This document shows, piece by piece, positions 12,814 through 36,434 of a stretch of DNA of 64,000 bases. Source of the stretch: an uncultured Acidobacteriota bacterium. GTDB taxonomy: Bacteria > Acidobacteriota > Terriglobia > Acidiferrales > UBA7541. The translations under genes were made by a program, and so were the position numbers. Where the stretch lies: contig CAWIAM010000015.1 of NCBI GenBank assembly GCA_963834215.1, forward strand, positions 43,881 through 107,880, written 5' to 3'. Below the pieces are notes generated by a model that was not told the origin of the DNA, searched no databases, and worked only from the letters and a program-made list of their open reading frames with translations. Within the stretch, counting starts at the first letter, position 1, and each line of letters begins with the position of its first letter.

Positions 12814-13473
12814 TCAGAGCGAATACTCAGGAATCTTGAGCTGCACGGTTCGCCTGTTTAGCGAAACGCAATCCTGTTCGCCGGGAAACCCGTCGAAGGT
12901 CGTCTCGGATAGCCCGAAATTCTTTGCCAGGAGTGCTCTTGAGGTGTGGTCCGGCCAGTCGTTGATGCTAAAGGTCCCAAATTCGAAAAAGTAACCGTTG
13001 CCGAAAGTGGGGATGAAATGGCACGCCTTTTCGCGCAGGCAGGCGAGCAAGTGTGGATTGCCGCGGGGAAAGTACCAGACGTTGCCGGGATCAGACTCAT
13101 TGATTTCCGACCCGCCGGGCGGATCGAGCACGGCTGTCCGTGAGCGGCCTTCCAGGACGAAGGCCCATTCCGCAGCCGTCACATGCCAGTGAAGTCCCTG
13201 CGCAACACACCGCTCCCGACGCGTCGACGCTGCGGCGATGCTCTTGGAGATCGGCAGTTGCTCTACAATCGCTTCCTTGCCGAAGCTGCCACCCATGATC
13301 TTGCCCTCAGATTGCTCCAGTGCGAAATTGAGTGTTCGGAGTTCCTTGGCTGGGAGTGGTGGATCGGGAACATTGTTCTTGAAGGGTAATTCGTAGAGTT
13401 GCCGGCTGTCCACATCATCACAATTCGCCTCAAGCACCTGCGGCGTGCAGTTCACGAAAGGCGCGAAATACAC
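12814..13473 (-). CDS. Monocupin resembling only the N-terminal half of bicupin oxalate decarboxylase (possible gene remnant)
   Basis: GLHWHVTAAEWAFVLEGRSRTAVLD...GNVWYFPRGNPHLL...FSINDWPDHTSRALLAKNFG is collinear with OxdC cupin domain 1, including the H-x-H-x3-E...H Mn ligands. The ORF stops at the inter-domain boundary, so the second cupin is absent. Confidence 0.55.
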   Translation of the reverse strand: MYFAPFVNCTPQVLEANCDDVDSRQLYELPFKNNVPDPPLPAKELRTLNFALEQSEGKIMGGSFGKEAIVEQLPISKSIAAASTRRERCVAQGLHWHVTAAEWAFVLEGRSRTAVLDPPGGSEINESDPGNVWYFPRGNPHLLACLREKACHFIPTFGNGYFFEFGTFSINDWPDHTSRALLAKNFGLSETTFDGFPGEQDCVSLNRRTVQLKIPEYSL

Positions 13474-13608: not shown

Positions 13609-15228
13609 TCAGTGGGCGGATGTCCCCTTGGATATGGCGGCCTCGCGATCTCGCGCCAGTTTGCCGAAGAACTCTCCGAATGCCGGCACGGAGGATTTTA
13701 GCAATTGGAAGTCGGTTTTCGAAATCAGGAGCACATCCATAGGAGTACGGGCGAGGACCGTGGCGTTGCGCGTTGCGTCCGTGAGCACAGCCATTTCCCC
13801 GAAATAGTCGTCCGCCCGCAAGATTGCCAGGTGCTCCATCTTTCCTTCCAGCTCTCGGAAGACTTCGCACTCACCGCTTTCAATCACATAGACACAGTCG
13901 CCAAGCTCGCCCTGGAAGAAGACAACATCACCGGGCTCAAAATGCTGTCGGGCCAAGGTAGATTCATGGATGTCACGGACCTGAACCAGGTCGGGATGAA
14001 ACAGCAGCCCAATCATCCAAGCAAATCCGACGCGGACCTTGCGGTACAGACTGGGCATCTTCATCAGATAGATGGTGCGCCACAGAAACCACGCAGGAAA
14101 ACCCGACACGCGAAAGCCCAGGATGTCCGCCACCGCAGAAAAACGGCCGAGCGACCCGAGCTTGCCCAGCCCATCGAAGTCAAATTCGGTGCTCTCTCCA
14201 CCGCGAATACTCGCCACAATATTCTCCGCCACAACCCTGGCCTCACGGGTGGCATGCTGCGCCGTAGGCGGAACGGGATTTCCAGACCTCGTGACGATTG
14301 AAGCGCAATCTCCCAAAGCCCAGACCTGTCCTTCATAACCCGCCAATTCCAACTTGCTATTGACCTTTAGCCGCCCCTTCTCCTTGGCGCAATCGAGGCT
14401 TTGCAGAACGGGTGCGATCGCCATGGGAACGGTGGAGATTATGGTTTTTGTGGGAATCTCGATGGCAGATTTTAATATGGCTCGTTCGGATGTGGCGCTG
14501 ACGAGACGGTCGAGCAATCGGATCTCAAGGCCTCGCTTAGCGAGCAGTTTATGGGCAAACACCGCGAGTTGGCCGTCGATTTCCGGCAAGATACGGTCTC
14601 CTGAATGAACCAGGACGCAACGGATTTCTTCATGACGTAGCCGCGGATAGTTGTCTTTCACCAGATGAACGAAGTCGTGCAATTCGGCAATGACCTCCAC
14701 GCCCGAAAATCCGCCGCCGGCAACCACGAAGGTCAACAATTTCTTGCGGAATTGAATGTCGGACTCCAGTTCCGCTTCCTCGAGGACGTGGATCAGATGG
14801 CTGCGCAAACTCAACGCATCGGCCAGCGTGCGAAACGGTTTGGCGTGTTCGAGCAAGCCGGGCTTGCCGGAATAGTCGGTAATTCCGCCCAGGGCGATCA
14901 CCAGATAGTCATAAGGTACTTCCATGGAACGCGGCCGAAAGCCGGGGCTCACGGTCACCGTCCTGGTCTTCAGGTTGATGTCCTGGACCTCGCGGGTGAT
15001 GAGTGCCGTGCGCGGGGACAATTGACGGATGGGCGAGACAACGTCGGTCAATCCGATTGACCCGGAAATGACCTCCGGCAGCATGGGCTGATATACGGAG
15101 TAATTTTCGCGGTTTATGAGCGTTACGGAAGCTTCGTTCGGTTTCAGGAGTTTGCCCAAATGGCGTGCCGTATAAACGCCGCCGAAGCCTCCGCCGAGAA
15201 TGACGATTTTTTTCTTTTCGGCGGTCAT
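13609..15228 (-). CDS. Type II NADH dehydrogenase (NDH-2)-like flavoprotein fused to a C-terminal cyclic-nucleotide-binding domain
   Basis: 539 aa. N-terminal KKIVILGGGFGGVYTA and a second VVAGGGFSGVE Rossmann motif typical of NDH-2. C-terminal ~120 aa cNMP domain (FFQGELGDCVYVIESGECEV...FGEMAVLTDATRNATV). Confidence 0.85.
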   Translation of the reverse strand: MTAEKKKIVILGGGFGGVYTARHLGKLLKPNEASVTLINRENYSVYQPMLPEVISGSIGLTDVVSPIRQLSPRTALITREVQDINLKTRTVTVSPGFRPRSMEVPYDYLVIALGGITDYSGKPGLLEHAKPFRTLADALSLRSHLIHVLEEAELESDIQFRKKLLTFVVAGGGFSGVEVIAELHDFVHLVKDNYPRLRHEEIRCVLVHSGDRILPEIDGQLAVFAHKLLAKRGLEIRLLDRLVSATSERAILKSAIEIPTKTIISTVPMAIAPVLQSLDCAKEKGRLKVNSKLELAGYEGQVWALGDCASIVTRSGNPVPPTAQHATREARVVAENIVASIRGGESTEFDFDGLGKLGSLGRFSAVADILGFRVSGFPAWFLWRTIYLMKMPSLYRKVRVGFAWMIGLLFHPDLVQVRDIHESTLARQHFEPGDVVFFQGELGDCVYVIESGECEVFRELEGKMEHLAILRADDYFGEMAVLTDATRNATVLARTPMDVLLISKTDFQLLKSSVPAFGEFFGKLARDREAAISKGTSAH

Positions 15229-15483
15229 AGCAGGCCCATGGCAAACCTTGGTGCGACCGAATCGCTAATGCGCACCACACATGCGCGGACGCCGCATTTC
15301 ATGAATGCGGAGCTCACGAGGATTTCGACTCCGACAGCCGCCAGGGGCCACCCGACGCGTCAATGCGAGCAAGGGCGACCCAGGCGACAACAGAAACAAC
15401 TTTCGCAATCGGGAAGCGCCGGGCATAACGCACGCCACGCATTGCGGCTGCATCCCCTCACAAAAGCGGCAAAAGTACTCCGG

Positions 15484-15825
15484 CTATTTTTTCAGCGTGC
15501 GAACGAAGGCGATAACGTTGTCCTTATCCGCATCCGTCAAATCTTTCACCGGTTTCATCTTGCCCTTGCCGTCCGTGATGATCTTCTTAATGTCGTCGTC
15601 GGACATCTTCTGAACTTCGTCCGAACTCAAGGGTGTGAATGTAACACCCAGCAACTTTGCCACTCCGGGGTTGCCGTCTCCGTCCGGACCATGGCAAGTC
15701 TTGCACTTCTTGGTGAAAATATCCTTGCCCGCCGTGGCGTCGCCCTTCGGCGCGGAGTAAAGAGTGAAAGCGATGCCAAGTACCGCCAAGCCCGTCACGA
15801 AGATTCCTGCAGAATGACGTTTCAT
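15484..15825 (-). CDS. Monoheme class I c-type cytochrome, signal-anchored
   Basis: 113 aa. N-terminal hydrophobic segment, one CKTCH motif and a distal Met region (GKGKMKP). AGGAG lies 9 nt upstream of the ATG. Confidence 0.85.
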   Translation of the reverse strand: MKRHSAGIFVTGLAVLGIAFTLYSAPKGDATAGKDIFTKKCKTCHGPDGDGNPGVAKLLGVTFTPLSSDEVQKMSDDDIKKIITDGKGKMKPVKDLTDADKDNVIAFVRTLKK

Positions 15826-15859
15826 TTACCAGTTCTCCTTTCAAATGAATTCAGTTCAT

Positions 15860-16429
15860 TCACTTTCCGGCACCTCGCATCGCCCGTTCGTTCACCGTCT
15901 TCATGATGTCTTGCTGGGTCGACGGCATCAGTTTCAGCATTGCGAGGAAATTGGCTTTCCCGAGGATTGCGACGTTGGCCGGAGTTACGGCGCGAACCGT
16001 GGCGTTGCGCGGCGCGTCACTAATCAGGGCCATCTCCCCGAAGTACTGGCCGGCAGAAAGTCTGGCAATCACCTTCTCGGCTCCGTCTTCGGTCCGGACC
16101 ACGGCGAACTCCCCTTCGCGGATGAAATAGGCGCAGTCGCCTTCCTCACCCTGCTGGAAAATCACTTGTCCAGGTTCGATCTCTTCGATCTCAAACAGGC
16201 TGTGGCGCCGCAAGAAGCGATAGGTGGTTACGCCGAGCACAGCAACTGCCGCGCCCAGCGCCAGTACAGGTGCGATCGTCGAAAAAAGGAAAAGCGTTCC
16301 GCCCGTCGTGCGCCTCAGGAATTCCAGGGCCAGGACGAAAACGGCGAGCGCGAGCACCTGAGCCACGATCAGCAGCGTGCGCGTAGCGGCGGAATTCAGT
16401 TTGAACGGTTTAACGACGGCTTCGGTCAT
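15860..16429 (-). CDS. Membrane-anchored cyclic-nucleotide-binding domain protein
   Basis: 189 aa. Two predicted TM helices followed by a cNMP domain (FQQGEEGDCAYFIREGEFAV...FGEMALISDAPRNATV). ATGA start/stop overlap with the NapC-like gene at 16426-16429. Confidence 0.8.
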   Translation of the reverse strand: MTEAVVKPFKLNSAATRTLLIVAQVLALAVFVLALEFLRRTTGGTLFLFSTIAPVLALGAAVAVLGVTTYRFLRRHSLFEIEEIEPGQVIFQQGEEGDCAYFIREGEFAVVRTEDGAEKVIARLSAGQYFGEMALISDAPRNATVRAVTPANVAILGKANFLAMLKLMPSTQQDIMKTVNERAMRGAGK

Positions 16430-17169
16430 GGCGTCACATTCTGCGCGACGTTGTGTGCCGGGTTATCCTGCGCGTGGCAATCCATGCAGCTTGCCTTTCC
16501 AGAGAATAGTGCGTCCTTATAGTCTTCGTGTGAAGCAATCCATTTGGCCGATCCCGCATGGCATTTCAGGCAATCGCTGTTCGGATAGGGATGGCGGAGC
16601 TTGATCGGCAAATGGAAGGTCCGAGTGTAATACTTGTACACATCGTTCATTCCTTCTTTTTTCGCTTCCACGGTACCGAATAAGCCATACGACGTGTGGC
16701 ACGCGTAACACTGATCGTCTGGAATATATCGGTTTTTGAAATGCAACGCCGCCAGGCTATTGCTTTTCTGGTCATGCATGTCATCCACAAACGATTTCAT
16801 CGTCAGATGGCACGAGGCGCAGAACTCCACGCGTTCGGCTTTCTCGAATACCAGGATCGTACCCACGCCGCTGATCAACATCGGAAAAGCCACCGCGCCC
16901 GCGATGAGCAGGCCCCAGGACACGGGGCCCGCGGCTGCGCCCCGGTATTTCAGCAGGCTGTATAGCACGACTCCGATTCCGATGATTGCCAGAGCGACGA
17001 GCACGCGCGCGCCGACGTGCTCCACCGGATCCTGCTGGAAGCGCTCGGCCTCCTGCTGCGCCCGCGCGACAAAAGGAAAAAGGAAAATGCCAGCAGCCAG
17101 GAGAATTCGCACCGCTGCTCCCGCGAGCAGGGGCTGGTTTGTCTCTCGTTTACAGGAATCCTCGATCAT
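16426..17169 (-). CDS. NapC/NirT-family membrane tetraheme cytochrome c (quinol dehydrogenase type)
   Basis: Hydrophobic N-terminal region plus four CXXCH motifs (CASCH, CYACH, CLKCH, CMDCH). The ATG at 17169 forms an ATGA overlap with the stop of the 15-heme gene, so it is preferred over the ORF-track start at 17247. Confidence 0.85.
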   Translation of the reverse strand: MIEDSCKRETNQPLLAGAAVRILLAAGIFLFPFVARAQQEAERFQQDPVEHVGARVLVALAIIGIGVVLYSLLKYRGAAAGPVSWGLLIAGAVAFPMLISGVGTILVFEKAERVEFCASCHLTMKSFVDDMHDQKSNSLAALHFKNRYIPDDQCYACHTSYGLFGTVEAKKEGMNDVYKYYTRTFHLPIKLRHPYPNSDCLKCHAGSAKWIASHEDYKDALFSGKASCMDCHAQDNPAHNVAQNVTP

Positions 17170-18359
17170 TGGTGATTGGTTGTTCCTTTGAGGGTCTGCG
17201 AATGGCATTCCCCACAGGTATCCGCGAATGTGTGGCAAGTAAAACAACTCCGTTCGTTGAGCATGGCAAGCTGCGCGTGACCGCCAGCTTTGAATTGCGC
17301 CAGCGGCATGTGGCTGCGCGGCGTCTCATTGTGGCAGCGGCTGCAAAAATCAGTTACGTGACACACCGAGCAGTTCGTACGGTCCAGCGCCGCATATTTT
17401 CCGTGGACGTCGTCCTTCCAGCGCGCGGTGTGCGATACGGGCATCATCACCTGGTGGCAACCAATGCATTCCTGCTGGCCGACGGCTGACGGCGCGACGT
17501 TCATGTGGCAAACAAAACAGGGCGCGCCCGCCTGGGACGCTTGGTCACCGTGATGGAGTCGGAAAGCTTCCGTATGCGATGGCGGCTTGACGATGCTGGA
17601 GTGAATCTCCGGCATTGGGCCGGATTGTACATCCACATGACAAACCTGGCAATTGGACATCTGAAAGTTAGATCCCAGGGTCTTCGATATGTCATGGCAA
17701 TTCACGCAGTCCGCCATTTTCGGCAGATCGAGGTTGGCAAGATTGGTGCTTTCGGCGATACCGTAGTGGCACGTCGTGCAATCGAGATGGTATGCGTCGC
17801 GATTCTTGAAATGCTCGGCGTGCGAAAATTGAATTTGCGGATATTTCCCTGAAACTACAAAAGAGGCCAGTTGGCGGTGAACCGTCGCGACGCTGGGATT
17901 TTCGATCTCTTCCGGCCGGTGGCACCCTCGGCAGTCCGCTGTCGTTGACTTCTCGCTGAGCAGCGGTTTCATTCCAGCCTTGGAATGGCAGCCGGCGCAA
18001 ATCACGTGATTCCCGAACGACGCATACGCGCCATCGTCCTGGAAATGATGGCAGAAGGTGCAGTCCGCGCGGAATCCGGTACGCGCATCCACTCGCGTAT
18101 GCGGATCCACGTGCCGCGCGTGCGAGAAATCGAAGACGATCGGCTGCTCGCCCTTGTAGCGCGGGAACGGCAGCAGATCTTCGGAGCTGGTCGGCGGAAA
18201 CACCGAATGGCACTGCACGCAAACCTTTTTCTTGATGTCTTTATCAAAATCGTCTTGATGGCAAGGCGTACATTGATCGTGGCCGGGACGTTGCAAGACC
18301 ACCGAGCCCGCCTTCGTCGCCACATGGCAGGCGTCACAATCCAGGCCCACTTGCTTCAA
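17166..18359 (-). CDS. 15-heme c-type cytochrome (c7-like repeats), main body; the N-terminus appears displaced by a frameshift
   Basis: 397 aa with 15 CXXCH motifs (about one per 27 aa). It has no signal peptide in this frame. The signal peptide is in the overlapping ORF 18334..18537 (see findings). Confidence 0.85.
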   Translation of the reverse strand: MKQVGLDCDACHVATKAGSVVLQRPGHDQCTPCHQDDFDKDIKKKVCVQCHSVFPPTSSEDLLPFPRYKGEQPIVFDFSHARHVDPHTRVDARTGFRADCTFCHHFQDDGAYASFGNHVICAGCHSKAGMKPLLSEKSTTADCRGCHRPEEIENPSVATVHRQLASFVVSGKYPQIQFSHAEHFKNRDAYHLDCTTCHYGIAESTNLANLDLPKMADCVNCHDISKTLGSNFQMSNCQVCHVDVQSGPMPEIHSSIVKPPSHTEAFRLHHGDQASQAGAPCFVCHMNVAPSAVGQQECIGCHQVMMPVSHTARWKDDVHGKYAALDRTNCSVCHVTDFCSRCHNETPRSHMPLAQFKAGGHAQLAMLNERSCFTCHTFADTCGECHSQTLKGTTNHQ

Positions 18360-18537
18360 GTGGAAGATCGTGCAAGTAAAAAGGCGCCTCCGTGGAGGCT
18401 GCGGTTTGCGATGTGGACTGCGAAGACGATGCCGCCTGGTTTTTTGCGGACGATCGCAAACCGAGCGCGCCCATCGCGACCAACAGGCACACTGCCGCGA
18501 CGCAGAGCTTAGACAGGGAGTTGTGTCTAGGCCCCAT
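18334..18537 (-). CDS. Signal-peptide-encoding 5' fragment that most likely belongs to the 15-heme cytochrome gene
   Basis: MGPRHNSLSKLCVAAVCLLVAMGALG... is Sec-signal-like. It starts immediately after the stop of the beta-barrel gene (18538). It joins the cytochrome frame if one T of the T5 run (plus-strand AAAAA at 18377-18381) is removed. Confidence 0.55.
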   Translation of the reverse strand: MGPRHNSLSKLCVAAVCLLVAMGALGLRSSAKNQAASSSQSTSQTAASTEAPFYLHDLPLEASGPGL

Positions 18538-20199
18538 TCAGTATTTCCACATCACGCCGAAACGAAATGTCTGGCTGTTTTGTATGTCGGGCCGAAACAC
18601 CGGGAAGTCCGAATCCAACCCGTAGTCCATGAAGACTCGCGTCTTGGGGTCGAGGGTGAAGGAAGCGTTTGCCAGCACGCCCTTGTCGTGCGCATCAGTG
18701 ATGGTGGTAAACAGATCGTGGAAATTCAGTTGGCGGTAGTATCCGCCAGCTCTCAAGTGGAGACGCCCGTCCAAAAAGCTGCGCCCGATTTCCAGACTGT
18801 AATCTTGTATTTGGGTCTCCCCAGTCGTGCTGAGGTCGTCGAACTGCGTCGGCGGCACGCCAGTTCCTGAGCGGTTGTCTGCATTCCGGAGATGATATTC
18901 CGCGAATAGGTCAACTTTCTTCCATGGAAAAATCTGCGCGTTGGCGCGGAAATCTTGAAACGAAGTGTCGAACGGCCCGGTGTTCTCCGTCTTGGTCAGC
19001 TGCCGTATCCAGATGGAACCGCCCAGACGCAGCCTGGCATTCAGCGCCCGCGATCCGTCAATCACGAATTGCGTGTACGGTTGCAAAGGCCCCAGATTCA
19101 GCCGCGTGAGCGTGTTGTATGGATCGTTGTCTCGCGCCGCTTCGGTGTAGTCGAAGAAATAGTCCTTGTCGGAAAGTTTGGCGGCATACGACACTCGCAG
19201 TGACGTCTTGCCGTCGCTTGGATTCCACATCAAATCCCCGCTGACATCCGTGGGAGAACTACCTACCATCCGGTAACTCACGCCAAACAGCCACGAGCTT
19301 CCGATATTCTGCCGGTAGCGGATGGAGTTTGTTCCCTGGATGTAATACAGCGTGTCATATTCCAAGCTGACGTTTTCGTTGAATCGGAAGAGGAAGTTGC
19401 CTCCCCCGATCGCTCGCTGTTGCGGATCGGAGTAGTAGGTAAACCGGCGACCCGCATAAATCATCCAGGAAAACCGGCGCCGGTTCATCGTGAACGAAGC
19501 GCCGTCCATCTGCGCCAGTTCCGCTCCGTAAACGTACTGGCGGCCCAGTCGCAGGCTGGTCCCGGCAAAGTCGCCGTCCGTCGGCCGCCCGTTGATATCT
19601 ATATACCCGGACATTAGTTGCAGGCGGCGATTCGAGCCGAAGGTATTAAGGATGTCGAGTTGCGGCGACGCGGACGAGACATGAGTTAGATCCTGCCCGT
19701 AAGCAAACGAGAAATTGGAATTCACGCGATCGGATAGCCAGCCCTGCGTGCCCCAATTCAAGAAGCTGTACATCACATTCGTGTCGGACTGAAAAGCCGA
19801 GGGAAACGGAATTCCCGCAGGATTGAACGTGCCGGTGATCGGAGCGTCAATCACGCCCGTCGCAGTCGGAAGCCCCGTGAAATACGTCTGCGTCCGCAAG
19901 TACTCGGTGCGGGTGCTCATGAAAAAATGATTCAGAAAATCGCCCGCGGGAGAGGATTCGCGAGGAGTTTGCACAACGGTCAGCGCAGCGTCGGGAGCAC
20001 TTTGGGGAATCGCGTCTTTGAGCAAGTTATCCCAGGCCGCGCCGATGCTCGGGCTGCTTGCCGCCGGCTGATCTCCAGGGGCGGAGGCCGGTCGAGCGTT
20101 CGTTCCCGTCAAGAAGAAGAGAACGGCAACGCCGGTCGCCAACTGTCGCGAAATCACTCGAAAGCAATTCGGCACTCGGTCCCCTCGCCCAACAGCCAA
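18538..20199 (-). CDS. Outer-membrane beta-barrel protein (porin-like), unknown family
   Basis: 553 aa. Signal-like N-terminus, alternating amphipathic strand pattern rich in Y/G/N/D/R, and a C-terminal beta-signal-like ...FRFGVMWKY ending in an aromatic residue. Confidence 0.7.
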   Translation of the reverse strand: MAVGRGDRVPNCFRVISRQLATGVAVLFFLTGTNARPASAPGDQPAASSPSIGAAWDNLLKDAIPQSAPDAALTVVQTPRESSPAGDFLNHFFMSTRTEYLRTQTYFTGLPTATGVIDAPITGTFNPAGIPFPSAFQSDTNVMYSFLNWGTQGWLSDRVNSNFSFAYGQDLTHVSSASPQLDILNTFGSNRRLQLMSGYIDINGRPTDGDFAGTSLRLGRQYVYGAELAQMDGASFTMNRRRFSWMIYAGRRFTYYSDPQQRAIGGGNFLFRFNENVSLEYDTLYYIQGTNSIRYRQNIGSSWLFGVSYRMVGSSPTDVSGDLMWNPSDGKTSLRVSYAAKLSDKDYFFDYTEAARDNDPYNTLTRLNLGPLQPYTQFVIDGSRALNARLRLGGSIWIRQLTKTENTGPFDTSFQDFRANAQIFPWKKVDLFAEYHLRNADNRSGTGVPPTQFDDLSTTGETQIQDYSLEIGRSFLDGRLHLRAGGYYRQLNFHDLFTTITDAHDKGVLANASFTLDPKTRVFMDYGLDSDFPVFRPDIQNSQTFRFGVMWKY

Positions 20200-20217
20200 T
20201 CTATTTATCGAACCAAA

Positions 20218-21009
20218 CTATTTCTCCCGCGCCAGCGCCTGAATTTGGTTGTTCGCCAGCGCAATCCGCCACGGATAGACGTCGCTGTGCCACTGCGTCG
20301 CCTGTACGTACGATTGCAGCTCGCTCTTGGCCAGGCTGTTCTGTCCCGTCGCTTCGTATACCTGCGCCAGCTCCCAGTGCACCTTCGAATTGTTTGCCAT
20401 GTCGGCCGTGAGCGCGATGGATTGCGGCGTCACGGGAGAAAGCGCCAATTCCGCCTGGTATGCGGTCACGGCGTTGGCGTACGCCTGCTGCTGGGTCGTC
20501 GGATCGGTGGCTTGCTGCGCCTCGATCACGTACGTCTCGGCGATCAGCGTATTGACCCCGAGCCTTTGCGGATCGATTTGCAGCACTTCCTGGAACAGCT
20601 CAATAGCCGCGCTGGGATTGGTTTCGCGCCACAAATAGCCGAGTCGCATCCGCACCGTGAACATGCACGGAGCAGGCGTCAATTGCGATGGCACCGCTCC
20701 ATTCACCAAAGTGGCCGCTGTAACGATCTGGCAGGTTTGGCTCTGGATGCTGTTCATCGAGAGCGACGTTTGATAATCGCTAAGCGCATCGGGCACGTCA
20801 TTTAAGTCATCCTGGTAGTGCATCCCGCGTTGCAGGTAGTCCCAGGCATTCTGCGGCTGCGTGATGCCCAGCAAATTCCAATCAATCTTGCCCTCGAAAT
20901 AAAACGGATTGCGGTTTGGGATAGTTCGGATTGGTGCTCGTGGTGCCCGTCGTCTGGTAAGCGCGCGTCTTCGCGAAGACGGCGACAAGCACCACCGCAA
21001 GGGCCACAA
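20218..21009 (-). CDS. TPR-like repeat protein; the N-terminus appears displaced by a frameshift
   Basis: 263 aa. Helical repeat region (AIELFQEVLQIDPQ..., YANAVTAYQAELALSP..., HWELAQVYEATGQ...). The first ~30 aa of the listed ORF are Arg-rich and implausible. Confidence 0.65.
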   Translation of the reverse strand: MWPLRWCLSPSSRRRALTRRRAPRAPIRTIPNRNPFYFEGKIDWNLLGITQPQNAWDYLQRGMHYQDDLNDVPDALSDYQTSLSMNSIQSQTCQIVTAATLVNGAVPSQLTPAPCMFTVRMRLGYLWRETNPSAAIELFQEVLQIDPQRLGVNTLIAETYVIEAQQATDPTTQQQAYANAVTAYQAELALSPVTPQSIALTADMANNSKVHWELAQVYEATGQNSLAKSELQSYVQATQWHSDVYPWRIALANNQIQALAREK

Positions 21010-21043
21010 GGGCTAACATTGGGTACCGATAGCGGATTTTCAT
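20882..21043 (-). CDS. Signal-anchor-encoding 5' fragment that most likely belongs to the TPR gene
   Basis: 53 codons, below the ORF-track cutoff. MKIRYRYPMLALVALAVVLVAVFAKTRAYQTTGTTSTNPNYPKP... The ATG at 21043 forms an ATGA overlap with the stop of the pentaheme gene. Removing 1 nt in CCCAAA (about 20905-20912) joins it to ...NPFYFEGKIDWN of the TPR ORF. Confidence 0.45.
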   Translation of the reverse strand: MKIRYRYPMLALVALAVVLVAVFAKTRAYQTTGTTSTNPNYPKPQSVLFRGQD

Positions 21044-23211
21044 TGTGTCAAACTCACAGTCGTATCATCCGAAGCGATGCTCTTGATGTTCTTCAGGTAC
21101 GTATCAATCAGTTGTTCATTCACGAGATTCAGATTGTTCCCCGTGGGCCCGTTCGCGCCCGTTACTCCAGCCAGGAACCGCATGAAAAGTGGGGGGAAAT
21201 GCTCGAAATTCACTTGCGCATGGACGTGCAACGGCCCCTGCAGCGTCACACCGATCGCCTGCAGCTGCTGCTGAGTTGGCAATTGAATTTCGTAATTGTA
21301 AGTACGCGGCTGCAACGGCTGCAACGAGCGGAAATTATCCACGGTATTAGCCAGTGCAGCCTGGAAGGTCTCTTCGAAATGCACACCCTGCGCCGTCACC
21401 GGCAATCCCGTGGTCGCGTCAATGCGCCCGATCGCCTGGCCTGGGAGGAAAATGTGAGTCAGCTCGTTTCGGAAAAGGACCAAACCTTCCGGCGCCCCCA
21501 AAAAGACGCGCGCGTCCGGCCCGTCATCCGGGCCTGCTTCAAACACCAGATTGTTGCCGCCGTTTGTCCCGGTTCCGCTCGTGTAGGTGGCAGTATGCGA
21601 ACCCGGATCTACGACTGCATGGAGATGCTCGAGGTCTTCATCGTCCAGGTTGCCGTCCGGTGCCTGTTCTCCGGTGTTCGGATGCGGCTTGTCAACCACG
21701 TATCCGGATTGGTAAAGCAGGAATCCATTGTTGTCCGTCACCGCCAGCTGCACGTAAACGGTCCGCTCTTGCGAGAATCCCGCTGGCAGGCGATGTCCCG
21801 TCAGTGACACTGCCTCCAATCGCACCGTGAAAGCTTGGCCGACTTGGGCCGTCGTATCTGTCTTGCTCAAGCTGATACGCGCAGCCGCATGCATCAGGTC
21901 CGCGCGCCGCGTCGCCAGTCCGTTCGGCACACCGTGCGAATCCGTTCCGGTCGCGTAGGGATCAGGGTAACCCGCGCCCAGCCGTGCGCTCAGCTCAGCT
22001 ACCGACAACAGCGGGACGTCCACTCCGGTGAAATAGTGTTCCACCACCTTGCGCAGTGAAAGCGGAGCGTTCTGGTCCGTGGATACACCCGGAACTGCCG
22101 CATAGTCGGTGGCAAACACGGCCGGCGTCGGGCTCGTCACCGTCATATCGCCAACTTGGTAGGTTGACGTGCCTGCGTAGGGAAACAGCGACATATGGCA
22201 GTCCTGGCAGCGCACGATCTGGCCGAACGGATTGTTTGTGCTGTTATAGGGACCGATCATCCACTCCGTGCTCAGGTTTTCGAGCCGGAAGTAGCTCACG
22301 TTCTGTCCACCGGGGTTCAAGTTGTGCGCCTCGGCCGTCAGATTCACATTCGGCACGAATACGTTGTGGCACGTATTACAAAAGGCTCCAGAGCGCAGAA
22401 ATGCGATCTGGGTCGGATTATTGTTGGCCACATGGAAATTGTTCTTCACGGCCACTGGAAACAAGAACGGACCCGTTTTCAGATCCGTTTGATTCAGCAG
22501 CAGGCTCGTGTTCCCAATGCCATCCATTCCGAAGCTGCGGTTGATGTCCGGCCCGTTTTCGTCGTGGCAGAAATCACAGGTAATTCCCGCGGCGCCCAAG
22601 GATGGCAGCGCACCGGCGGGAGGCTCTGCTCCCGGAGTCGGCGGCAAGAGCTGGTTCCCGTTCTCGTCCACCTCGACGTAGTCTCGCAGCGGCCGGAACA
22701 GTTGCGGTTGAAAACACTGCAGACCGGCAGCGGGCGCGGGATTGCAGGTGCCCAGGCCCGCGAGCTGCGGAACTTCCCGCATCGTCGGATCGTTACCCAG
22801 AACCTCGATGTCTGCGTTGTGGCAAGTAAAGCAGAACCCGGCCTGCACCTGCCGAGTCTCCTTCAGGACCGGCGTCGTATACATATTGGTGTTCAACGGA
22901 GTTCCGTCCGGCAACACGACGGTACTGTCCGAATACACTGGCCGCAGCAAGCCGCCGTTCGCCAGATTGCCGGCGGATTCGAGGCCGTTGAACAATGGAC
23001 TCACGTTGCGATACCCCGACTTCACCGCACTATGAAGTTCGTTGTACTGACGTTGATGGCAAGGCAGGCAGTTTTCTGGCCGTTGGAAGGCCTGGGGTCT
23101 AAAGCCAACTTGCGGCGGATTGGGATTACTCTGCACCTGCGTGCCGCAGCCTAATTCGAGCAGAGCTAGGAGAGACACGCAGATCGTTGCCGCCAAAACT
23201 CGGGGTCGCAC
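21040..23211 (-). CDS. Pentaheme c-type cytochrome lipoprotein (723 aa)
   Basis: Lipoprotein signal with lipobox LLELGC, and five CXXCH motifs (CLPCH, CFTCH, CDFCH, CNTCH, CQDCH) in the first ~350 aa. The large C-terminal region has no heme motifs. GTG start with AGGA 9 nt upstream. Confidence 0.85.
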   Translation of the reverse strand: MRPRVLAATICVSLLALLELGCGTQVQSNPNPPQVGFRPQAFQRPENCLPCHQRQYNELHSAVKSGYRNVSPLFNGLESAGNLANGGLLRPVYSDSTVVLPDGTPLNTNMYTTPVLKETRQVQAGFCFTCHNADIEVLGNDPTMREVPQLAGLGTCNPAPAAGLQCFQPQLFRPLRDYVEVDENGNQLLPPTPGAEPPAGALPSLGAAGITCDFCHDENGPDINRSFGMDGIGNTSLLLNQTDLKTGPFLFPVAVKNNFHVANNNPTQIAFLRSGAFCNTCHNVFVPNVNLTAEAHNLNPGGQNVSYFRLENLSTEWMIGPYNSTNNPFGQIVRCQDCHMSLFPYAGTSTYQVGDMTVTSPTPAVFATDYAAVPGVSTDQNAPLSLRKVVEHYFTGVDVPLLSVAELSARLGAGYPDPYATGTDSHGVPNGLATRRADLMHAAARISLSKTDTTAQVGQAFTVRLEAVSLTGHRLPAGFSQERTVYVQLAVTDNNGFLLYQSGYVVDKPHPNTGEQAPDGNLDDEDLEHLHAVVDPGSHTATYTSGTGTNGGNNLVFEAGPDDGPDARVFLGAPEGLVLFRNELTHIFLPGQAIGRIDATTGLPVTAQGVHFEETFQAALANTVDNFRSLQPLQPRTYNYEIQLPTQQQLQAIGVTLQGPLHVHAQVNFEHFPPLFMRFLAGVTGANGPTGNNLNLVNEQLIDTYLKNIKSIASDDTTVSLTQ

Positions 23212-23645: not shown

Positions 23646-24725
23646 TCAGGGTTGCGCCGGACTTGCTTGCGGCTGCGCTGCCGAAACAGTTTCCGACGAA
23701 GATCGAGAAGTTCGGAGGCGATATCCGGCGCGCGTTCGCACGTGGTACTTCTTGGATTGGCCGTTCGCGAGCTTCACGGAAATGGTACGCCAGCCGCGGT
23801 TGGGATTCGGCAACGGGTAGTAACTGAGAGAATAGAGGTGAGCCAAGTCGTCACGGATAGAAGCAAACGCGTTTTGTTCGTCTTTCCAGTTCCTGGCGAA
23901 ATAGACTTTGCCGCCGGTGGCAGCGGTCATGCGTTGAAATACGGCGTTCGAAATCGGTTCGATGTGCGCTTCTTCGGTACTAACCATGTAGATGGTTGTG
24001 CCGGTTGATTGCGCCAACTCGGCCACCTGCTCGGGCGGCACCGTGCTGGCATTGTCAGGCCCATTGGAGAAAACCACGACTACTTTTCTTCCGACGAAGT
24101 GCGCGGCATCTTGCACCGTCAACAAAAGGCAATTGTAGAGTGCGGCATCATCTCCAGCCACCGTGGTGCGCGCGACGCGCAAGACTTGTGCTCGATCCGC
24201 GGTCAGTACCGTGCCGCGGGAAAGGTCGCGGCTGTAGGAATAGAACGCCACTTTGTCCGCGCCCTCGAGGGAGCGAACGAAATCAGCAATCGCATCCTGC
24301 GCAAACACAAAACCTCGGTACATGTAGTTGCTGGTGTCGAACAGAACAAACACGTTGGCACCTGTCACCAAAGATGAAAGCTCGCTTGCAGAAACTCGCT
24401 CGCCAGGGTCCCTGTGCGGATCCTCGGGAGGATCGGGCGGCTTGGCGTCTGACGGCGACGCGTTCGGCACGGCACGGACGGTTTCGTTGCCTTCGCCGAA
24501 CCTGGCGATGCTTTCGGGGATCCCGTCCTCGGTGACGACGAAATCTTGCGGACGCAGTCCGGTAATGTACTTGCCTTTGCCGTCGGTCACGGCCACGTTC
24601 AACTGAACCAAGTCCACGGTGACGTTGATGCGCGGCGGGTTCGTTTGCTGGGCTACAGCGGGGGTTGCCAAGAAAGCAGAAAATCCGAAGCAAAAACTGA
24701 TAAAGAGGAAGAGTCGCTTGAGCAT
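23646..24725 (-). CDS. VWA-domain protein (Acidobacteria-type VWFA-related family)
   Basis: Signal peptide MLKRLFLFISFCFGFSAFLATPAVAQ, then INVTVDLVQLNVAVTDGKGKYITGLRPQDFVVTEDG, the VWA core VFVLFDTSNYM...VVVVFSNGPDN, and the C-terminal WRTISVKL...YHVRTRAGY. ATG at 24725 has GAGG upstream and is preferred over 24755. Confidence 0.85.
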   Translation of the reverse strand: MLKRLFLFISFCFGFSAFLATPAVAQQTNPPRINVTVDLVQLNVAVTDGKGKYITGLRPQDFVVTEDGIPESIARFGEGNETVRAVPNASPSDAKPPDPPEDPHRDPGERVSASELSSLVTGANVFVLFDTSNYMYRGFVFAQDAIADFVRSLEGADKVAFYSYSRDLSRGTVLTADRAQVLRVARTTVAGDDAALYNCLLLTVQDAAHFVGRKVVVVFSNGPDNASTVPPEQVAELAQSTGTTIYMVSTEEAHIEPISNAVFQRMTAATGGKVYFARNWKDEQNAFASIRDDLAHLYSLSYYPLPNPNRGWRTISVKLANGQSKKYHVRTRAGYRLRTSRSSSETVSAAQPQASPAQP

Positions 24726-24809
24726 GATGGACCTCGATGATACTGACTGCCTCATTTTCGCGGATGTTGCCGGGCAGAGTGGATTGCCCGACCTCGCTGT
24801 AGGCGCCGC

Positions 24810-27800
24810 CTAAGGCTGAGCGGTACCAGCATTCGACGGCAGCAACGCGAGCTTGCCCTGCCGAAACTCTTCTCCCGTTTCGCGCATTGCGCGAAGCAAT
24901 GCCGGCCAATCGTTCAAGTCGGTGGCGAAGATCTTGGTGACCATACGAACGGTAAGCTCGGGCGCCAGCCGATTCAGCGCCACCGGTGGATAGCCCATCT
25001 CGTCGGCCAAGCGAGCCCAATACAGATTCGTGGAATCCCAGGTTTCGGCTAGCAATCGGCTGGAGTAACCTTGGAACATGGGAAACGGAGCCACATTCAG
25101 CAGTTCGCGGCCATAAGTTCGCGCCAGTACCGGATGCGGCACGCCGAAATCCCGCGAGATCCGTTCCCAGCTTAGATCCGAAGGATGCTCGAGAGACAAT
25201 TCCTGCAATTCTCGTCCCGCCGGCCCCCATGAAGAGGTTACGTCCGGAAATCTGCGCCGAAACTCCGCGGTAAGATAAAAAGTATCGGCCGGAGTGACTC
25301 GAGAAAGCACCTCGGTCAGCCGTCCCGCTCGCAGCGCATCTTCCAACTGCGCCCACCGTTGAGGAATCATGCGGTCGGAAAAGATATTCATTACGTTGCC
25401 GCGCAGTTCTTCGTCTTGCGCCGCTGCCGCCAAGAGTTCCTCTCCCGCGCGCTGATAAAGTGCCACGGCGTGGAGCTCAATACCGCTCACGTTCCACCAA
25501 CGCGGCAAAACGGAGCCGGCCAAGACGCACGGGGTGACGTCCGGCCAGATCAGAGCCTGCACGTTTTCCGGAGAAATGAAATCCTGCTCCAGTTGCGCCA
25601 GCACGTAAGGTAAGTCGGCGAGCGATCCAACGAGATGGGCGCCGCCACCTGCCGGCGATCCTATACCGAACACACGGGGCTCCTGCCAGACCGACTCTTC
25701 AATGCCAATTACGGTTTCACCCGAGAAATCGTGGGACCGAATCAGGAGCGGATTATTGTGAAGAGCCTGAGCGCCGGGCGGTTCGTAGTAGGCGTAACTC
25801 AGGCCGACAAGCGTGTCCCTTAAGAAAGGAACAAGCTCTCCACGAGCTTGCTCCAATTCCGCGCTGGAAGCCTTCGAGCTCACCAGCTTGGCAATATCGG
25901 TTCGCATTTCCAGATCGGTGTGGCGGTTGTTGTAAGTTCCGGTCGTAAACTCGGTTCTTTCGCCCTTGGTAAAGATCGGGCGCGGCATCTGAAATTCCGT
26001 TAGCTCTTCGGCAAGCGGGAGCAGGCCGTCGTCCGGAGCATTTCCGTGCGCCGCTCCACGCAGGCCGTCGCCCAGTGCTAGTAGCGTATCGAGGGAAACC
26101 AGGCGCTGATCGTCCAGGACCACACGAATCCGATCAGCCAATTCCCTATGGACGCGCTGGCCTTCCGTGTCGGTTTGTCGGGGGCCAGCCATCAACTCCA
26201 CGATTTCATCTTGGGAGCGCCGCGATTCGCCGGTAGCCGCGCGCAGGACTTGTGCCAGCGAATTGCGTCCTGCATCGAAAAGCTGATCGGACGAAGTCAC
26301 ATGCGAGAACGGTTTCATCATTTCCTGCCACGATTCGTCCTGCTTGGACCCAGCGATCTCACCCTGGCGTGCCAGGATTTGCCAAAGTCCGACATTCGCT
26401 TCGAAAATTCCCATCGCGTTGCCGCGCAGCGTGTGGTCGGAAATCTTGCCGATAGATTGGGCTGTCGCCAGGAACGCCGCGATGGACGAATCGCCTAACT
26501 CTGGAAATTCAGAAAAAATCAAATACTGGTCGCGAAATTCGCGGAACTTGCTCGCCATCAGCCCAACCGTTGAAGGGCTCAAGCGATGCCCTGCGGGTCG
26601 CTTGGCGTCTATTTCACTGAGCACGAGAAAGGCGTCGGGTGGCCCTCCGTCTATGTACAGGCGGGAAAGCGCAAACATAACTTCCAGCAGTCCATCGGGC
26701 GTTTTCCAGCCCTTGGTTTCGACGCCCGCGCTGTGGGCGGCGTCAGCAACAGTCTTCTGCCTGAGAATGGTCCTCCACGCTTGAAGATCTCCAGGAATGT
26801 GTGGATCGCCATTGGGCTCCCACTGCAGGCGAGTAATCAACAGCAAGAGGGTGGGGTCCGGACGAAACACGGACGCTGTGGCGCTCGGAGACGCACTTTT
26901 TCCGCGCAGCGCTTCGTAATACCCCCGTAGCCGGGGAGATTCCGCAATGTGGGTTTGCTGCTCGAGAGGAACGCGCGAGAGCGAATCAAAATAGGCGGCC
27001 AACCAGCCGTCGTCCTTGGTAAGAAGCCGCTGAACGAATTCTGACGGCGAATGCGGGTTTGCGCCAACTAAGTCCTTCCACGCCGGCTCAGCTGCCTGTC
27101 CGCCGGGCACAACGACACTTCCTGAACGGATGAGGATGTAGCTGCCGTAAAAATCCAAAACGGAAGCGAGCGGGACCAACTTTTTCATTCCCGGCGATCG
27201 CTGCAGAGTCGCCTGCGTTTCGGGATCCATATGCGCCCACGCATAGTAAAGACGCGCTAGAGAAGGATCGTGCAAAAGCGCCTCAAGCAACGTGCTGCTG
27301 CTTTCGTCTTTGCCCCCATGCTTGCCTGCTACCCGCCAATCGGACTCTGTCATGAATATCGGTACGTGCGAGCTCGGATAGGAATAGGAGAAAGGCTCGC
27401 CCCCCTGCAGAGTTTTCTCCAGTTCGGGGAGCGGAAAACCGGAGTCGATGGTCAGAAACGCTCTTCGCGCATCCTCAGTCTCAACGAAAGTGCTGCTCTT
27501 TCCGCAGTCCGGACGTGCGCGGTAGCCCAGGATATCCAACAAGCCCTTCGCGTCGCTGCAATTGGTGACGCGAATCACGCCGCCGGTTCCTGCCAAGGCT
27601 GTCAGTTCCCGTGCTTGCTCCACATATCGCCGAAGCAGAATCAGGAACTCGGTTGCATGGGCGCTCGAGCCTGTTCCCTCGTAACCGACGATGAATACGT
27701 TACGAGCGAGCAAGGGCATCACTTCTTCGGGAGAAACTTTCTGACTGACTCCAGCCATGCGCAAGAAAGAACGGAGAGGACCCGGAATAGTCGCCATCGC

Positions 27801-27938
27801 CGGTTCATGCGATTGCGCTTCCTGCGGCGCAGAAGAGGAAGATTGGGAAGGACGGGCGCCGCAAACAACCGGAGTGAAGCAGGCACAAACGCAGCACGCA
27901 ACTACGAGTGGCACAGAAAGATGAAGGGGATGTTTCAT
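24810..27938 (-). CDS. Large exported hypothetical protein (about 1042 aa), no recognisable domain
   Basis: Uninterrupted 3.1-kb ORF. Signal-like MKHPLHLSVPLVVACCVCACFTPVVCGA. Predominantly helical-looking, with no motifs I can assign. Start taken at ATG 27938 (the ORF track gives 27983). Confidence 0.75.
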   Translation of the reverse strand: MKHPLHLSVPLVVACCVCACFTPVVCGARPSQSSSSAPQEAQSHEPAMATIPGPLRSFLRMAGVSQKVSPEEVMPLLARNVFIVGYEGTGSSAHATEFLILLRRYVEQARELTALAGTGGVIRVTNCSDAKGLLDILGYRARPDCGKSSTFVETEDARRAFLTIDSGFPLPELEKTLQGGEPFSYSYPSSHVPIFMTESDWRVAGKHGGKDESSSTLLEALLHDPSLARLYYAWAHMDPETQATLQRSPGMKKLVPLASVLDFYGSYILIRSGSVVVPGGQAAEPAWKDLVGANPHSPSEFVQRLLTKDDGWLAAYFDSLSRVPLEQQTHIAESPRLRGYYEALRGKSASPSATASVFRPDPTLLLLITRLQWEPNGDPHIPGDLQAWRTILRQKTVADAAHSAGVETKGWKTPDGLLEVMFALSRLYIDGGPPDAFLVLSEIDAKRPAGHRLSPSTVGLMASKFREFRDQYLIFSEFPELGDSSIAAFLATAQSIGKISDHTLRGNAMGIFEANVGLWQILARQGEIAGSKQDESWQEMMKPFSHVTSSDQLFDAGRNSLAQVLRAATGESRRSQDEIVELMAGPRQTDTEGQRVHRELADRIRVVLDDQRLVSLDTLLALGDGLRGAAHGNAPDDGLLPLAEELTEFQMPRPIFTKGERTEFTTGTYNNRHTDLEMRTDIAKLVSSKASSAELEQARGELVPFLRDTLVGLSYAYYEPPGAQALHNNPLLIRSHDFSGETVIGIEESVWQEPRVFGIGSPAGGGAHLVGSLADLPYVLAQLEQDFISPENVQALIWPDVTPCVLAGSVLPRWWNVSGIELHAVALYQRAGEELLAAAAQDEELRGNVMNIFSDRMIPQRWAQLEDALRAGRLTEVLSRVTPADTFYLTAEFRRRFPDVTSSWGPAGRELQELSLEHPSDLSWERISRDFGVPHPVLARTYGRELLNVAPFPMFQGYSSRLLAETWDSTNLYWARLADEMGYPPVALNRLAPELTVRMVTKIFATDLNDWPALLRAMRETGEEFRQGKLALLPSNAGTAQP

Positions 27939-28361
27939 CGTCGCCCCAAAATCTTCAAGAAAACCTGCTGCTACTTCCGCCAACCGTTAAGGACCGCTAG
28001 AGGAGCTTCGCTGCGGCTGAAATCCATATCGTAATCATCAAAGCCCGGACACGCACCCTAGGATGAGGATAGTACTCTTCTTCCTGCCCCGAAGACAACG
28101 AACTTATCCAACGCTGCCGCCTGCGATCAATCGCCCCCGAAGACGAGATAAGGAAACGAGTCCGCGCAGATCTGGACCTACGAAGCCGAGGATTGATGCC
28201 CGTAATCGGAAATTCTGGTGCGTCAGACGCCAAGCGCGCTAATCAAATTCAACGTACTAAAGCGCGGGTTCGATGACGTGAGGCTGTCGGCATTCGTAGA
28301 TCCGCGAAAAGAAGTAACTCTGGGAGTGATCCTGCGACTTCCGCGGCCATTGCCAGACGAT

Positions 28362-30125: not shown

Positions 30126-30145
30126 GAACCTCCGGGCAGGCGGTG

Positions 30146-30877: not shown

Positions 30878-31038
30878 GTGATTTCCTTGGACGAACGCGG
30901 ATTTGTCCGGTCGAGCAAGGCCTCCTCGGATGATTGCGGTGTATCCATTATATAGCTTATCTAGCCGCACTGCCGCAGGAGCCCCTAGCTTCGCATGCCC
31001 CTGCGGCGCGGCGGCGGCTTTCTATGAGGCCAGAACCT

Positions 31039-36114: not shown

Positions 36115-36434
36115 ACTTATCAAGTTTTGGGAACGATACCAAGTCGTTGCCAGGGTGGGCGCGGCAAGCGTTTGTTGTGAGCGCTTGGCAAAAGAGGCTC
36201 TTAGTGCTAGAGTCCGCCCAACGGTATCGAAGATTCGCATGGGTTGTATCGAAGGCAGTGCGTGTTTATGGGTGGTGTCTGGGTGAAAACGGTGTGTCTC
36301 GGGGTGCCCAAGTCTCCTGACTGTTACGCCGCGGCTTCTTAAACCAATCCTGGTTTGAGTTCGTAGTCGTGCGCCTAATTTCGCGTTGCGGGATGGGTAG
36401 GCCTAGCACGCCTCTCTGTGGGGAGGAAAGAATC

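Follow-up and report, generated by a model that had tools for sequence, protein, structure and literature searches.

The porin-cytochrome cluster PCC4 comprises a porin, three periplasmic cytochromes (with 4, 5 and 10 hemes) and a membrane protein, sometimes joined by an iron-sulfur (FeS) protein, and it is modelled as passing electrons from a donor outside the cell into the quinone pool (He et al. 2017, PMC5566968). The ptdABCDEFG operon includes a porin, an FAD/NAD(P) oxidoreductase, a tetraheme, a ferric-reductase-like membrane protein and a decaheme, and its function is stated to be completely unknown (bioRxiv 10.1101/2023.11.21.568154). Judged from their descriptions, PCC4 and the ptd operon appear to be the same type of cluster. 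Here we describe a block of eight minus-strand genes (g1 to g8) at 13609-23211 of a 64-kb stretch of DNA from an uncultured Acidobacteriota bacterium (contig CAWIAM010000015.1; the whole stretch of 64,000 nucleotides is called the window), with a pentaheme protein, an outer-membrane beta-barrel and a 15-heme cytochrome among its products. We read this block, tentatively, as an Acidobacterial variant of the PCC4/Ptd type that provides a cyclic-nucleotide-gated route from cytoplasmic NADH to the outer membrane, a reading that we consider quite possible though somewhat short of probable.

Composition and conservation of the block

In the open reading frame (ORF) list of the window, eight successive ORFs cover the block:

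21040..23211, minus strand: g1, 723-aa pentaheme protein with a lipoprotein-like signal (…LELGC/G) and five CXXCH motifs
20218..21043, minus strand: g2, signal-anchored tetratricopeptide repeat (TPR) protein, ~274 aa if intact; frameshifted here
18538..20199, minus strand: g3, outer-membrane beta-barrel, maximal ORF 553 aa, C-terminus …FGVMWKY
17166..18537, minus strand: g4, 15-heme periplasmic cytochrome, ~450 aa if intact; frameshifted here
16426..17169, minus strand: g5, NapC/NirT-family tetraheme, candidate quinol dehydrogenase
15860..16429, minus strand: g6, 189-aa cyclic-nucleotide (cNMP)-binding protein with two transmembrane helices
15484..15825, minus strand: g7, 113-aa class-I monoheme cytochrome c with a signal peptide
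15229..15483, minus strand: gap between g7 and g8, 255 nt, the block's sole long intergenic space
13609..15228, minus strand: g8, 539-aa type-II NADH dehydrogenase (NDH-2) with a C-terminal cNMP-binding domain

Conservation was scanned using one genome per species, which gave 76 loci, 66 of them with enough downstream sequence and 49 of at least 20 kb (individual loci carry L numbers below). Their hosts belong to Acidiferrales, Terriglobales/Terriglobia and Bryobacterales, with a single bin labelled Binatia in addition. The genes g2, g3 and g4 lie next to g1 in 60 of the 66 loci and are collinear in 54, and the flanking genes are unrelated. The block is therefore not a chance arrangement, and a conserved electron-transfer module that pairs a large barrel with a heme-dense wire, as proposed in an earlier note made from the sequence alone, is borne out at species level. 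The TPR and cNMP proteins singled out in that note are conserved components as well: g2 always accompanies g1 in the loci examined, and g5, g6 and g7 occur together in 29 of the 49 long loci, with a full-length g8-like gene in 21. These downstream genes (g5-g8, here called module A) vary in position and orientation relative to the core g1-g4, and in L087 the same genes stand in rearranged order. In 5 of the 49 long loci a different set, module B, takes the place of module A; both were found in none, and neither lies within 10 kb of the core in 15. Because module A shifts in this way and modules A and B alternate beside the core, the block is built of sub-units, namely (g1,g2), (g3,g4) and an inner-membrane input module that can be exchanged.

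Beside the g1-g4 core, module B is found complete or in part in eight related loci. Its members are a NuoE/NuoF fusion, a 720-aa FeS protein (2Fe-2S and 4Fe-4S domains plus two or three cNMP-binding domains), a ~300-aa polytopic membrane protein with five transmembrane (TM) helices and a membrane-anchored decaheme. A motif search found two WX3HX13H motifs and one SGXXG in 8/8 copies of the polytopic protein, and this combination is the signature of the ferric-reductase-like inner-membrane protein of PCC3/PCC4 (PMC5566968). The window itself holds no module B genes by tblastn.

Since relatives carry the PCC4-type inner-membrane signature in module B and the parts list is shared, the Acidobacterial cluster is probably a variant of the PCC4/Ptd type, a likeness drawn from descriptions of parts. 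The common parts are a c552-related pentaheme near a porin (g1, with barrel g3 two genes downstream), a tetraheme and/or decaheme, an NAD(P)H-linked flavoprotein and a cNMP-binding protein; judged by description, the tetraheme g5, the NDH-2 g8 and the two cNMP domains of the window may be the counterparts of PtdD, PtdC and PtdE. The window's relatives add the ~300-aa 5-TM protein with its two WX3HX13H motifs and SGXXG, the FeS protein and the decaheme. Several differences are also evident. The Acidobacterial clusters possess an additional TPR protein and 15-heme wire, and the window has a NapC/NirT tetraheme, a 2-TM cNMP protein, a monoheme and an NDH-2-cNMP fusion instead of the di-heme-b, FeS-cNMP and decaheme proteins. 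The hosts of window-type clusters are soil/peat Acidobacteriota, in contrast to marine/freshwater Proteobacteria, Nitrospirales and Planctomycetes. The earlier note had called the module possibly undescribed. This holds, as far as found in the literature searched, for the barrel family, the TPR partner, the 15-heme wire and the cNMP-fused NDH-2, but the architecture is in part shared with PCC4 and ptd.

Two further systems are known from peat Acidobacteriota, EET1 (porin-NHL-cytochrome) and EET2 (MtrC/DmsE/porin/cytochrome; bioRxiv 10.64898/2026.05.27.727921). They share with the window cluster the phylum, the habitats and the idea of a conserved syntenic porin plus multiheme cytochrome; identity with either was rejected, as neither is described with TPR, c552/MccSep-type 5-heme, 15-heme or cNMP/NDH-2 genes.

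At the level of single genes, the list proposed in the earlier note proved largely correct. A motif scan of the block counted 5, 15, 4 and 1 CXXCH motifs in g1, g4, g5 and g7, which confirms its total of 25 heme motifs in eight consecutive minus-strand genes, and found no CXXCK or CX3-4CH variants in the eight ORFs; the 553-aa barrel ending in MWKY is likewise in the ORF list. ATGA start/stop overlaps are present at 17166-17169 (g4/g5) and 16426-16429 (g5/g6), and the g3 stop runs straight into the g4 ATG at 18537 (TGAATG at 18540-18535). From these junctions, g6 is predicted to be translationally coupled to g5, and g3 to g4. A third ATGA had been proposed at 21040-21043, where the g1 stop overlaps the ATG at 21043 that starts g2; it is present, but the ORF opened there is out of frame with the TPR body. 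The description of g2 as a signal-anchored TPR protein accordingly stands for its repeats (TPR_19, 33 bits, plus TPR_2 in Pfam) but not for a continuous ORF, as anchor and body lie in different frames. Given the 255-nt gap before it, g8 may have its own promoter; scans of the block and the gap found no consensus promoter or terminator above background, and none of the block matched Rfam.

The assignments made for module A agree with those in the note. The tetraheme g5 scores 40.5 bits against PF03264 (cutoff 24.1) and has three N-terminal hydrophobic helices in addition to its four CXXCH motifs. It is not an NrfH, NapC, TorC or CymA equivalog, with scores far under those cutoffs, and it reaches 24 bits against a cutoff of 192 for TIGR03508. 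In g6, two TM helices are combined with a cytoplasmic cNMP-binding domain (FGEMALISDAPRNATVRA; PF00027, cNMP_binding, 88 bits), and the cNMP domains of g6 and g8 both read as having the canonical FGE(M)A…R(N)AT phosphate-binding cassette. The monoheme g7 matches the class-I families Cytochrome_CBB3 (52 bits) and Cytochrom_C (45 bits) and resembles c551/c6/cbb3-type donors. Matches of g8 to Pyr_redox_2 (117.9 bits) and NDH2_C (31.5 bits), both above cutoff, and to cNMP_binding (74 bits) identify it by domain content as a type-II NADH dehydrogenase and a predicted quinone reductase. The Listeria flavin-based extracellular electron transfer locus also has a dedicated NDH-2, but it is Gram-positive, includes neither cytochromes nor a barrel, and has an NDH-2 that lacks a cNMP domain. 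The searchable literature yielded no report of a fusion between an NDH-2 and a cNMP-binding domain, and a search for TPR proteins in porin-cytochrome clusters returned nothing relevant.

Some loci show further arrangements of these genes. Module B genes are listed in L032, L036, L038, L052, L053, L062, L070, L076 and L079, partially in some (e.g. L070:357-4637 and L079:4832-9610). In L073 and L062, g1-g2 lie on the strand opposite g3-g4. Tandem g1 paralogs of 784 and 722 aa, with five hemes each, occur in L065 (about 8-12 kb), and extra g1 fragments in L043. Two Bryobacterales loci contain a transposase-looking ORF of 443-449 aa flanking the g1-g4 core, in three copies in L046 (1111-2442, 6171-7502 and 16093-17424) and in two in L066, which hints that the core can be mobilised.

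The outer-membrane barrel and the 15-heme cytochrome

The barrel g3 matches no family in Pfam or NCBIfam, nor does it match any PDB entry by sequence. Its database copy is 545 aa long with a GTG start at 20175, and its more than 292 homologs are all annotated as hypothetical, those with a named host being from Acidobacteriota MAGs throughout. Forty members of the g3 family were also compared with the family models without a match, and MtrB_PioB (PF11854) was not among the hits at E<=1. An AlphaFold2 (AF2) model built from 40 homologs (mean predicted local distance difference test score, pLDDT, 73.4) has 22 strands with short periplasmic turns, for which standard barrel geometry gives an estimated Cα diameter of ~40 Å. 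In a Foldseek search this model matched generic barrels at TM-scores <=0.47 (AlgE, the ushers FimD and PapC, and porins), and MtrB was not in the top 50. The earlier note had seen no MtrB-type features in the barrel, a point supported by the lack of a PF11854 match in g3 or its 40 relatives and by the 22 strands. It had also reasoned that a barrel of fewer than 16 strands could not host a cytochrome, and the modelled barrel is larger than that. Twenty-two strands exceeds the number in typical diffusion porins and is oversized for a small-solute channel.

Residues 108-136 of g3, in the first predicted extracellular loop, have a pLDDT <50 yet are among the most conserved stretches of the family (FTGxPTxTGVIDAPPGxxFNPNGIPYPxAFQ). 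This loop may fold into the barrel lumen or touch a partner.

For g4, all 15 CXXCH motifs and 15 further His are conserved in 49 orthologs, in ~390 mature residues or ~26 per heme. This is consistent with two His ligands for every heme and no site left open for catalysis, and since each of the 15 hemes has a conserved second His, g4 is predicted to be a pure electron wire. Its Pfam matches are to Cytochrome_C7 (56 bits) and to c3 and MtrC-II/IV domains. The best PDB match by sequence, limited to the N-terminus, is the c7-like chain 8K9E_A, which we take to be the pentaheme subunit of an alternative complex III. The MtrA/DmsE model TIGR03508 was not matched by g4, which has 15 rather than 10 hemes.

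Across loci, g3 and g4 travel as a pair (joined by TGAATG), and so do g1 and g2 (joined by ATGA). Because g4, rather than g1, is the genetic partner of the barrel, a unit of porin plus wire like MtoAB/PioAB is favoured over a mere substrate channel. Like MtrCAB and MtoAB/PioAB, the block has a heme-dense periplasmic wire gene adjoining a large barrel gene, and a NapC/NirT-family quinol dehydrogenase; the mto cluster also has a class-I monoheme. It differs from them in its 22-strand barrel (26 strands in the MtrB structure 6R2Q), in its 15-heme rather than decaheme wire and in an outer cytochrome of another superfamily. Membership in the MtrCAB group was rejected, there being no MtrB_PioB, DmsE/MtrA or MtrC/OmcA family matches and the barrel being modelled with 22 strands.

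The pentaheme protein and the proposed electron path

The pentaheme protein g1 has a heme cap (about residues 40-345), followed by an immunoglobulin (Ig)-like stem with the motif GHRLPAGFSQER and a C-terminal extension. More than 530 homologs were found, every one annotated as hypothetical, the named ones all being from Acidobacteriota metagenome-assembled genomes (MAGs). A narrow g1 profile (A2) had no match in the PDB. An exhaustive profile search extended the set to 603 relatives, including proteins of 550-950 aa with 28-46% identity to g1, and a superfamily profile broadened with distant relatives (A3) matched 5ZE8 (the low-potential pentaheme cytochrome c552, LPC, of Thermochromatium tepidum) at E 5e-13 and 9WT8 (MccSep) at E 3e-10. 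The aligned parts include the heme region as well as the GHxxPxG motif of the Ig-like domain. All five MccSep CXXCH motifs align one to one with those of g1, as do the four recovered in the 5ZE8 fragment. In a Foldseek search with the g1 AF2 model, which is of poor quality (pLDDT 58.9), the sole significant match was 5ZE8 (E 1.3e-4, TM-score 0.42 by target, 13% identity). The profile matches indicate that g1 belongs, by remote homology, to the pentaheme plus Ig-like superfamily of c552 (LPC) and MccSep (ExtKL). The ‘heme-free C-terminal half’ described in the earlier note is thus better seen as the Ig-like stem of the c552/MccSep fold plus an extension, and it carries an invariant His473.

MccSep (GSU2937-2936, ExtKL) is a periplasmic selenoenzyme in which polysulfide is reduced at heme 2 via Cys239 and Sec325 (bioRxiv 10.1101/2025.11.18.688581). 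Like MccSep, which is encoded in Geobacter extHIJKL (PDB 9WT8), g1 has five CXXCH in order and a heme cap with a GHxxPxG-bearing Ig-like stem, and a barrel gene beside it; it is ~270 aa longer. In the profile alignment, the Sec325 position is Phe479 of g1, within GHRLPAGFSQER, and the heme-2-ligating Cys239 aligns to about Arg309, in the conserved RLENLSTEW, where the alignment is approximate. Since both catalytic positions are replaced, g1 was rejected as a true MccSep-type enzyme. The T. tepidum c552 shares the pentaheme and Ig-like domains with g1 but is a soluble periplasmic protein of 435 aa, compared with 723. An NrfA, HAO, MccA or OTR-type enzyme was likewise rejected, there being no family match and no CXXCK. 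As MtrC/OmcA, g1 falls below threshold (no match to TIGR03507 above cutoff, and 17.8 bits on PF22113 against a cutoff of 30), and a family scan of 42 g1 orthologs returned solely sub-threshold generic heme matches.

Taken with the other genes, this suggests the following path. NADH would be oxidised by the cNMP-domain NDH-2 (g8), reducing the quinone pool. Quinol would then be oxidised by the three-helix NapC/NirT tetraheme g5, paired with the cNMP membrane protein g6, and electrons would move on to the periplasmic monoheme g7 and the all-bis-His 15-heme wire g4. The wire, in or under the 22-strand barrel g3, would form the outer-membrane unit, and electrons would end on the pentaheme g1, a putative terminal oxidoreductase with g2 as its TPR partner. 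A conduit of this kind is plausible.

Several observations weigh against this proposal, most of them concerning g1. The characterised relatives of g1 are periplasmic, MccSep being an enzyme and LPC a soluble cytochrome. No other protein of the block is as highly conserved as g1 (its median identity to the window is 84%, compared with 81% for g4 and 70% for the barrel), a degree of conservation not usual among surface cytochromes. In Bryobacterales, the g1 orthologs carry a signal of the signal-peptidase-I type (AxA/QTP) and no Cys. Outside the heme motifs, His260, His392, His473 and Met340 are invariant across the superfamily, and with three His and one Met for five hemes a catalytic heme in g1 is possible. 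In L034, L047 and L086, g1 and g2 occur without a nearby barrel or g4, and distant g1 relatives on Myxococcota-like contigs stand alone, without barrel or multiheme neighbours. Electron uptake would accommodate the class-I monoheme g7 and the published PCC4 model just as well, g2 and g4 carry frameshifts in the window (see below), and the host genomes are all uncultured MAGs, none from a cultured strain.

The same observations bear on where g1 resides. The earlier note had proposed a pentaheme lipoprotein with the lipobox LELGC. The five CXXCH stand and the Cys after the signal peptide is kept in Acidiferrales/Terriglobales orthologs, but the lipobox is non-canonical, with Glu at -3, and the anchor is not universal, being absent in Bryobacterales. 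The ‘surface-type’ label in that note is not supported, since g1 groups with a superfamily whose characterised members are periplasmic, one of them an enzyme, and the surface lipoprotein reading is weakened. The kinship, conservation and signals of g1 appear to argue against an MtrC-like surface role as the default, and a position on the periplasmic face seems slightly likelier than one on the cell surface.

A purely periplasmic enzyme system is the alternative that these features bring forward. Here g4 would span the periplasm and feed the enzyme, and the barrel, with or without the TPR protein, would pass substrate or product across the outer membrane. The remote homology of g1 to MccSep (a periplasmic polysulfide reductase) and LPC is consistent with this, as are its top rank in conservation, the Bryobacterales signal and the stand-alone relatives. 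The MccSep gene of Geotalea adjoins a barrel gene, a precedent for pairing enzyme and porin. The four invariant candidate distal ligands for five hemes leave room for an active site, and the conserved RLENLxTEW and GFSQER of the g1 family occupy the positions of MccSep C239 and U325. However, Arg309 and Phe479 replace the catalytic Cys and Sec, no CXXCK or NrfA, HAO or MccA family match was found, and the g1 family in the narrow sense conserves seven His outside the motifs, which would suffice for five six-coordinate hemes. The barrel also argues against the enzyme, as it pairs genetically with g4, is oversized for a small solute and is unrelated to the ExtI-like Porin_O_P barrel of Geotalea (hhalign probability 0.2%), for which reason g3 was rejected as an ExtI-type porin. 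The note had held that close homology of its cytochromes to periplasmic enzymes would count against a conduit. The relation of g1 to MccSep goes part of the way, but the homology is remote and the catalytic Cys and Sec are absent. We consider the enzyme system unlikely, though far from negligible.

The ext-like operon of Geotalea (L085:3117-9543) consists of two rhodanese genes, a 401-aa Porin_O_P barrel, two small ORFs and MccSep split at a UGA codon (324+98 aa), with two multiheme cytochrome genes and a Rieske/cytochrome b pair just downstream. It differs from the window block in having no 15-heme or TPR gene and a barrel unrelated to g3, and none of the eight proteins of the block matched Rhodanese or Porin_O_P. 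Stand-alone g1-superfamily proteins in L081-L084 form an uncharacterised branch of the c552/MccSep superfamily. A lipoprotein-like signal peptide precedes several of them, several lie beside a small ORF of 120-145 aa, and some are fused to PKD/RCC1 repeats or a Cys-rich C-terminal tail.

Direction of electron flow, gene integrity and implications

In module A as in module B, the first component is a flavoprotein that oxidises NADH, and cNMP-binding domains are present. Lacking proton coupling, NDH-2 cannot drive reverse electron flow, and NOX/FRE-like di-heme-b proteins pass electrons outward. For these reasons, export of NADH electrons, controlled by cyclic nucleotides, is favoured.

The opposite direction, uptake from Fe(II), Mn(II) or reduced humics, would bring electrons in through g3/g4 and on to g7 and a terminal oxidase, and via g5 to the quinone pool. 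We regard this as quite improbable, because both alternative input modules begin with NADH-oxidising flavoproteins, NDH-2 is unable to run backwards and the NOX/FRE-like di-heme-b protein of module B has a design that sends electrons outward. There is also no match to an MtrB_PioB barrel, Cyc2 or the MtoA/DmsE family in the block. On the other side, the parts parallel those of the Sideroxydans mto cluster (porin, multiheme, class-I monoheme and NapC/NirT tetraheme), g7 is similar to c551/c6/cbb3-type donors, and in L003 the block lies beside COX3/COX4 genes. Uptake also matches the model proposed for MtoAB-MtoD-CymA and for PCC4, the latter running from extracellular donor to quinone pool in He et al. 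(mto, PCC3 and PCC4 are discussed in PMC5566968).

Two genes of the block are broken in the window. Locus L001 served as the reference for these frameshifts, as it is 84-93% identical to the window (its proteins 85-93%) and the block has ~86% nucleotide identity. The ORF opening at ATG 21043 (MKIRYRYPMLALVALAVVLVAVFA…, the signal anchor of g2) is out of frame with the TPR body at 20218-21009, and the break maps to one extra A in the AAA run at 20915-20917. In g4, the heme body is a 397-aa ORF (17166-18359) without a signal peptide. The signal peptide, from ATG 18537, is in another frame, and an extra C at 18366 separates the signal peptide with its Ser-Thr-Gln linker from the heme body. The cytochrome that the earlier note described, with 15 CXXCH in about 450 aa, therefore has its 15 motifs, but in the window it is not one continuous protein. 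In L001-L004 both genes are unbroken (g2, 272-274 aa; g4, 450-456 aa). Programmed frameshifting was rejected, since the sites are not conserved and relatives carry plain intact ORFs.

Because relatives have g2 and g4 intact and the window holds other broken genes, the two frameshifts are likely assembly indels rather than real decay. All remaining gaps in the 9.6-kb alignment to L001 are compensated, the other ORFs of the block are intact, one of the two insertions sits in a homopolymer, and other long-contig MAG loci (L043, L071 and L075) have a split g1, g2 or g4 as well, all of which an indel-prone assembly fits better than decay. That the module is decaying in this genome, with real frameshifts, neither protein exported and the system non-functional here, is highly doubtful for the same reasons and at ~86% identity outside the two indels, although both uncompensated 1-nt insertions fall exactly between signal peptide and body and an outer-membrane protein gene elsewhere in the window is likewise split.

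That gene (36369-40239, plus strand; CarboxypepD_reg and OMP_b-brl_4, TonB-dependent-like) is in at least four ORFs, two of which match successive stretches (353-500 and 512-833) of one Pfam model. Frameshifts of this kind beyond g2 and g4 point to indel-prone assembly or gene decay. Directly downstream of g8, a 219-aa cupin ORF (12814-13473, minus strand; Cupin_1, 42 bits) resembles a piece of some larger bicupin; this gene, too, may be damaged. Upstream of g1 (23646-27983, minus strand) lie a secreted VWA-domain protein of 369 aa and a 1057-aa protein without a Pfam match, neither of which is kept beside the cluster in relatives. Further upstream (28362-30970, minus strand), a HAMP/HisKA histidine kinase and an OmpR-type response regulator are encoded. 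Homologs of the kinase occur near the cluster in four other loci (L037, L052, L067 and L079); the kinase may regulate the module, or its presence there may be coincidental.

Beyond the route itself, we offer a speculation, and an unlikely one, that the cluster acts as an ‘electron valve’ of soil/peat Acidobacteriota. On a cAMP/cGMP signal of reductive stress, NADH electrons would be diverted via the 15-heme wire and the 22-strand barrel to a catalytic branch of the c552/MccSep superfamily. The input might, with as little confidence, be the dedicated NDH-2 or, in other lineages, the NOX-like NuoEF/FeS/di-heme-b unit. The acceptor could conceivably be extracellular or outer-membrane-proximal, for example humic or particulate organic matter, Fe(III) or sulfur species, and this too we hold to be unlikely.

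The comparison links PCC4, Ptd and ExtKL/MccSep, which were reported separately, via one pentaheme superfamily, and reveals a pentaheme of the c552/MccSep superfamily that travels with a TPR partner. The cNMP domains suggest that the export of respiratory electrons is controlled by cyclic nucleotides. In soil and peat, Terriglobia and Bryobacterales rank among the most abundant bacteria, and little is known of how they respire anaerobically. If the proposed route is correct, ~60 species-level genomes would have a means of disposing of NADH electrons at or beyond the outer membrane, which would matter for the reduction of iron and humics, for carbon turnover and for the suppression of methane in peat.

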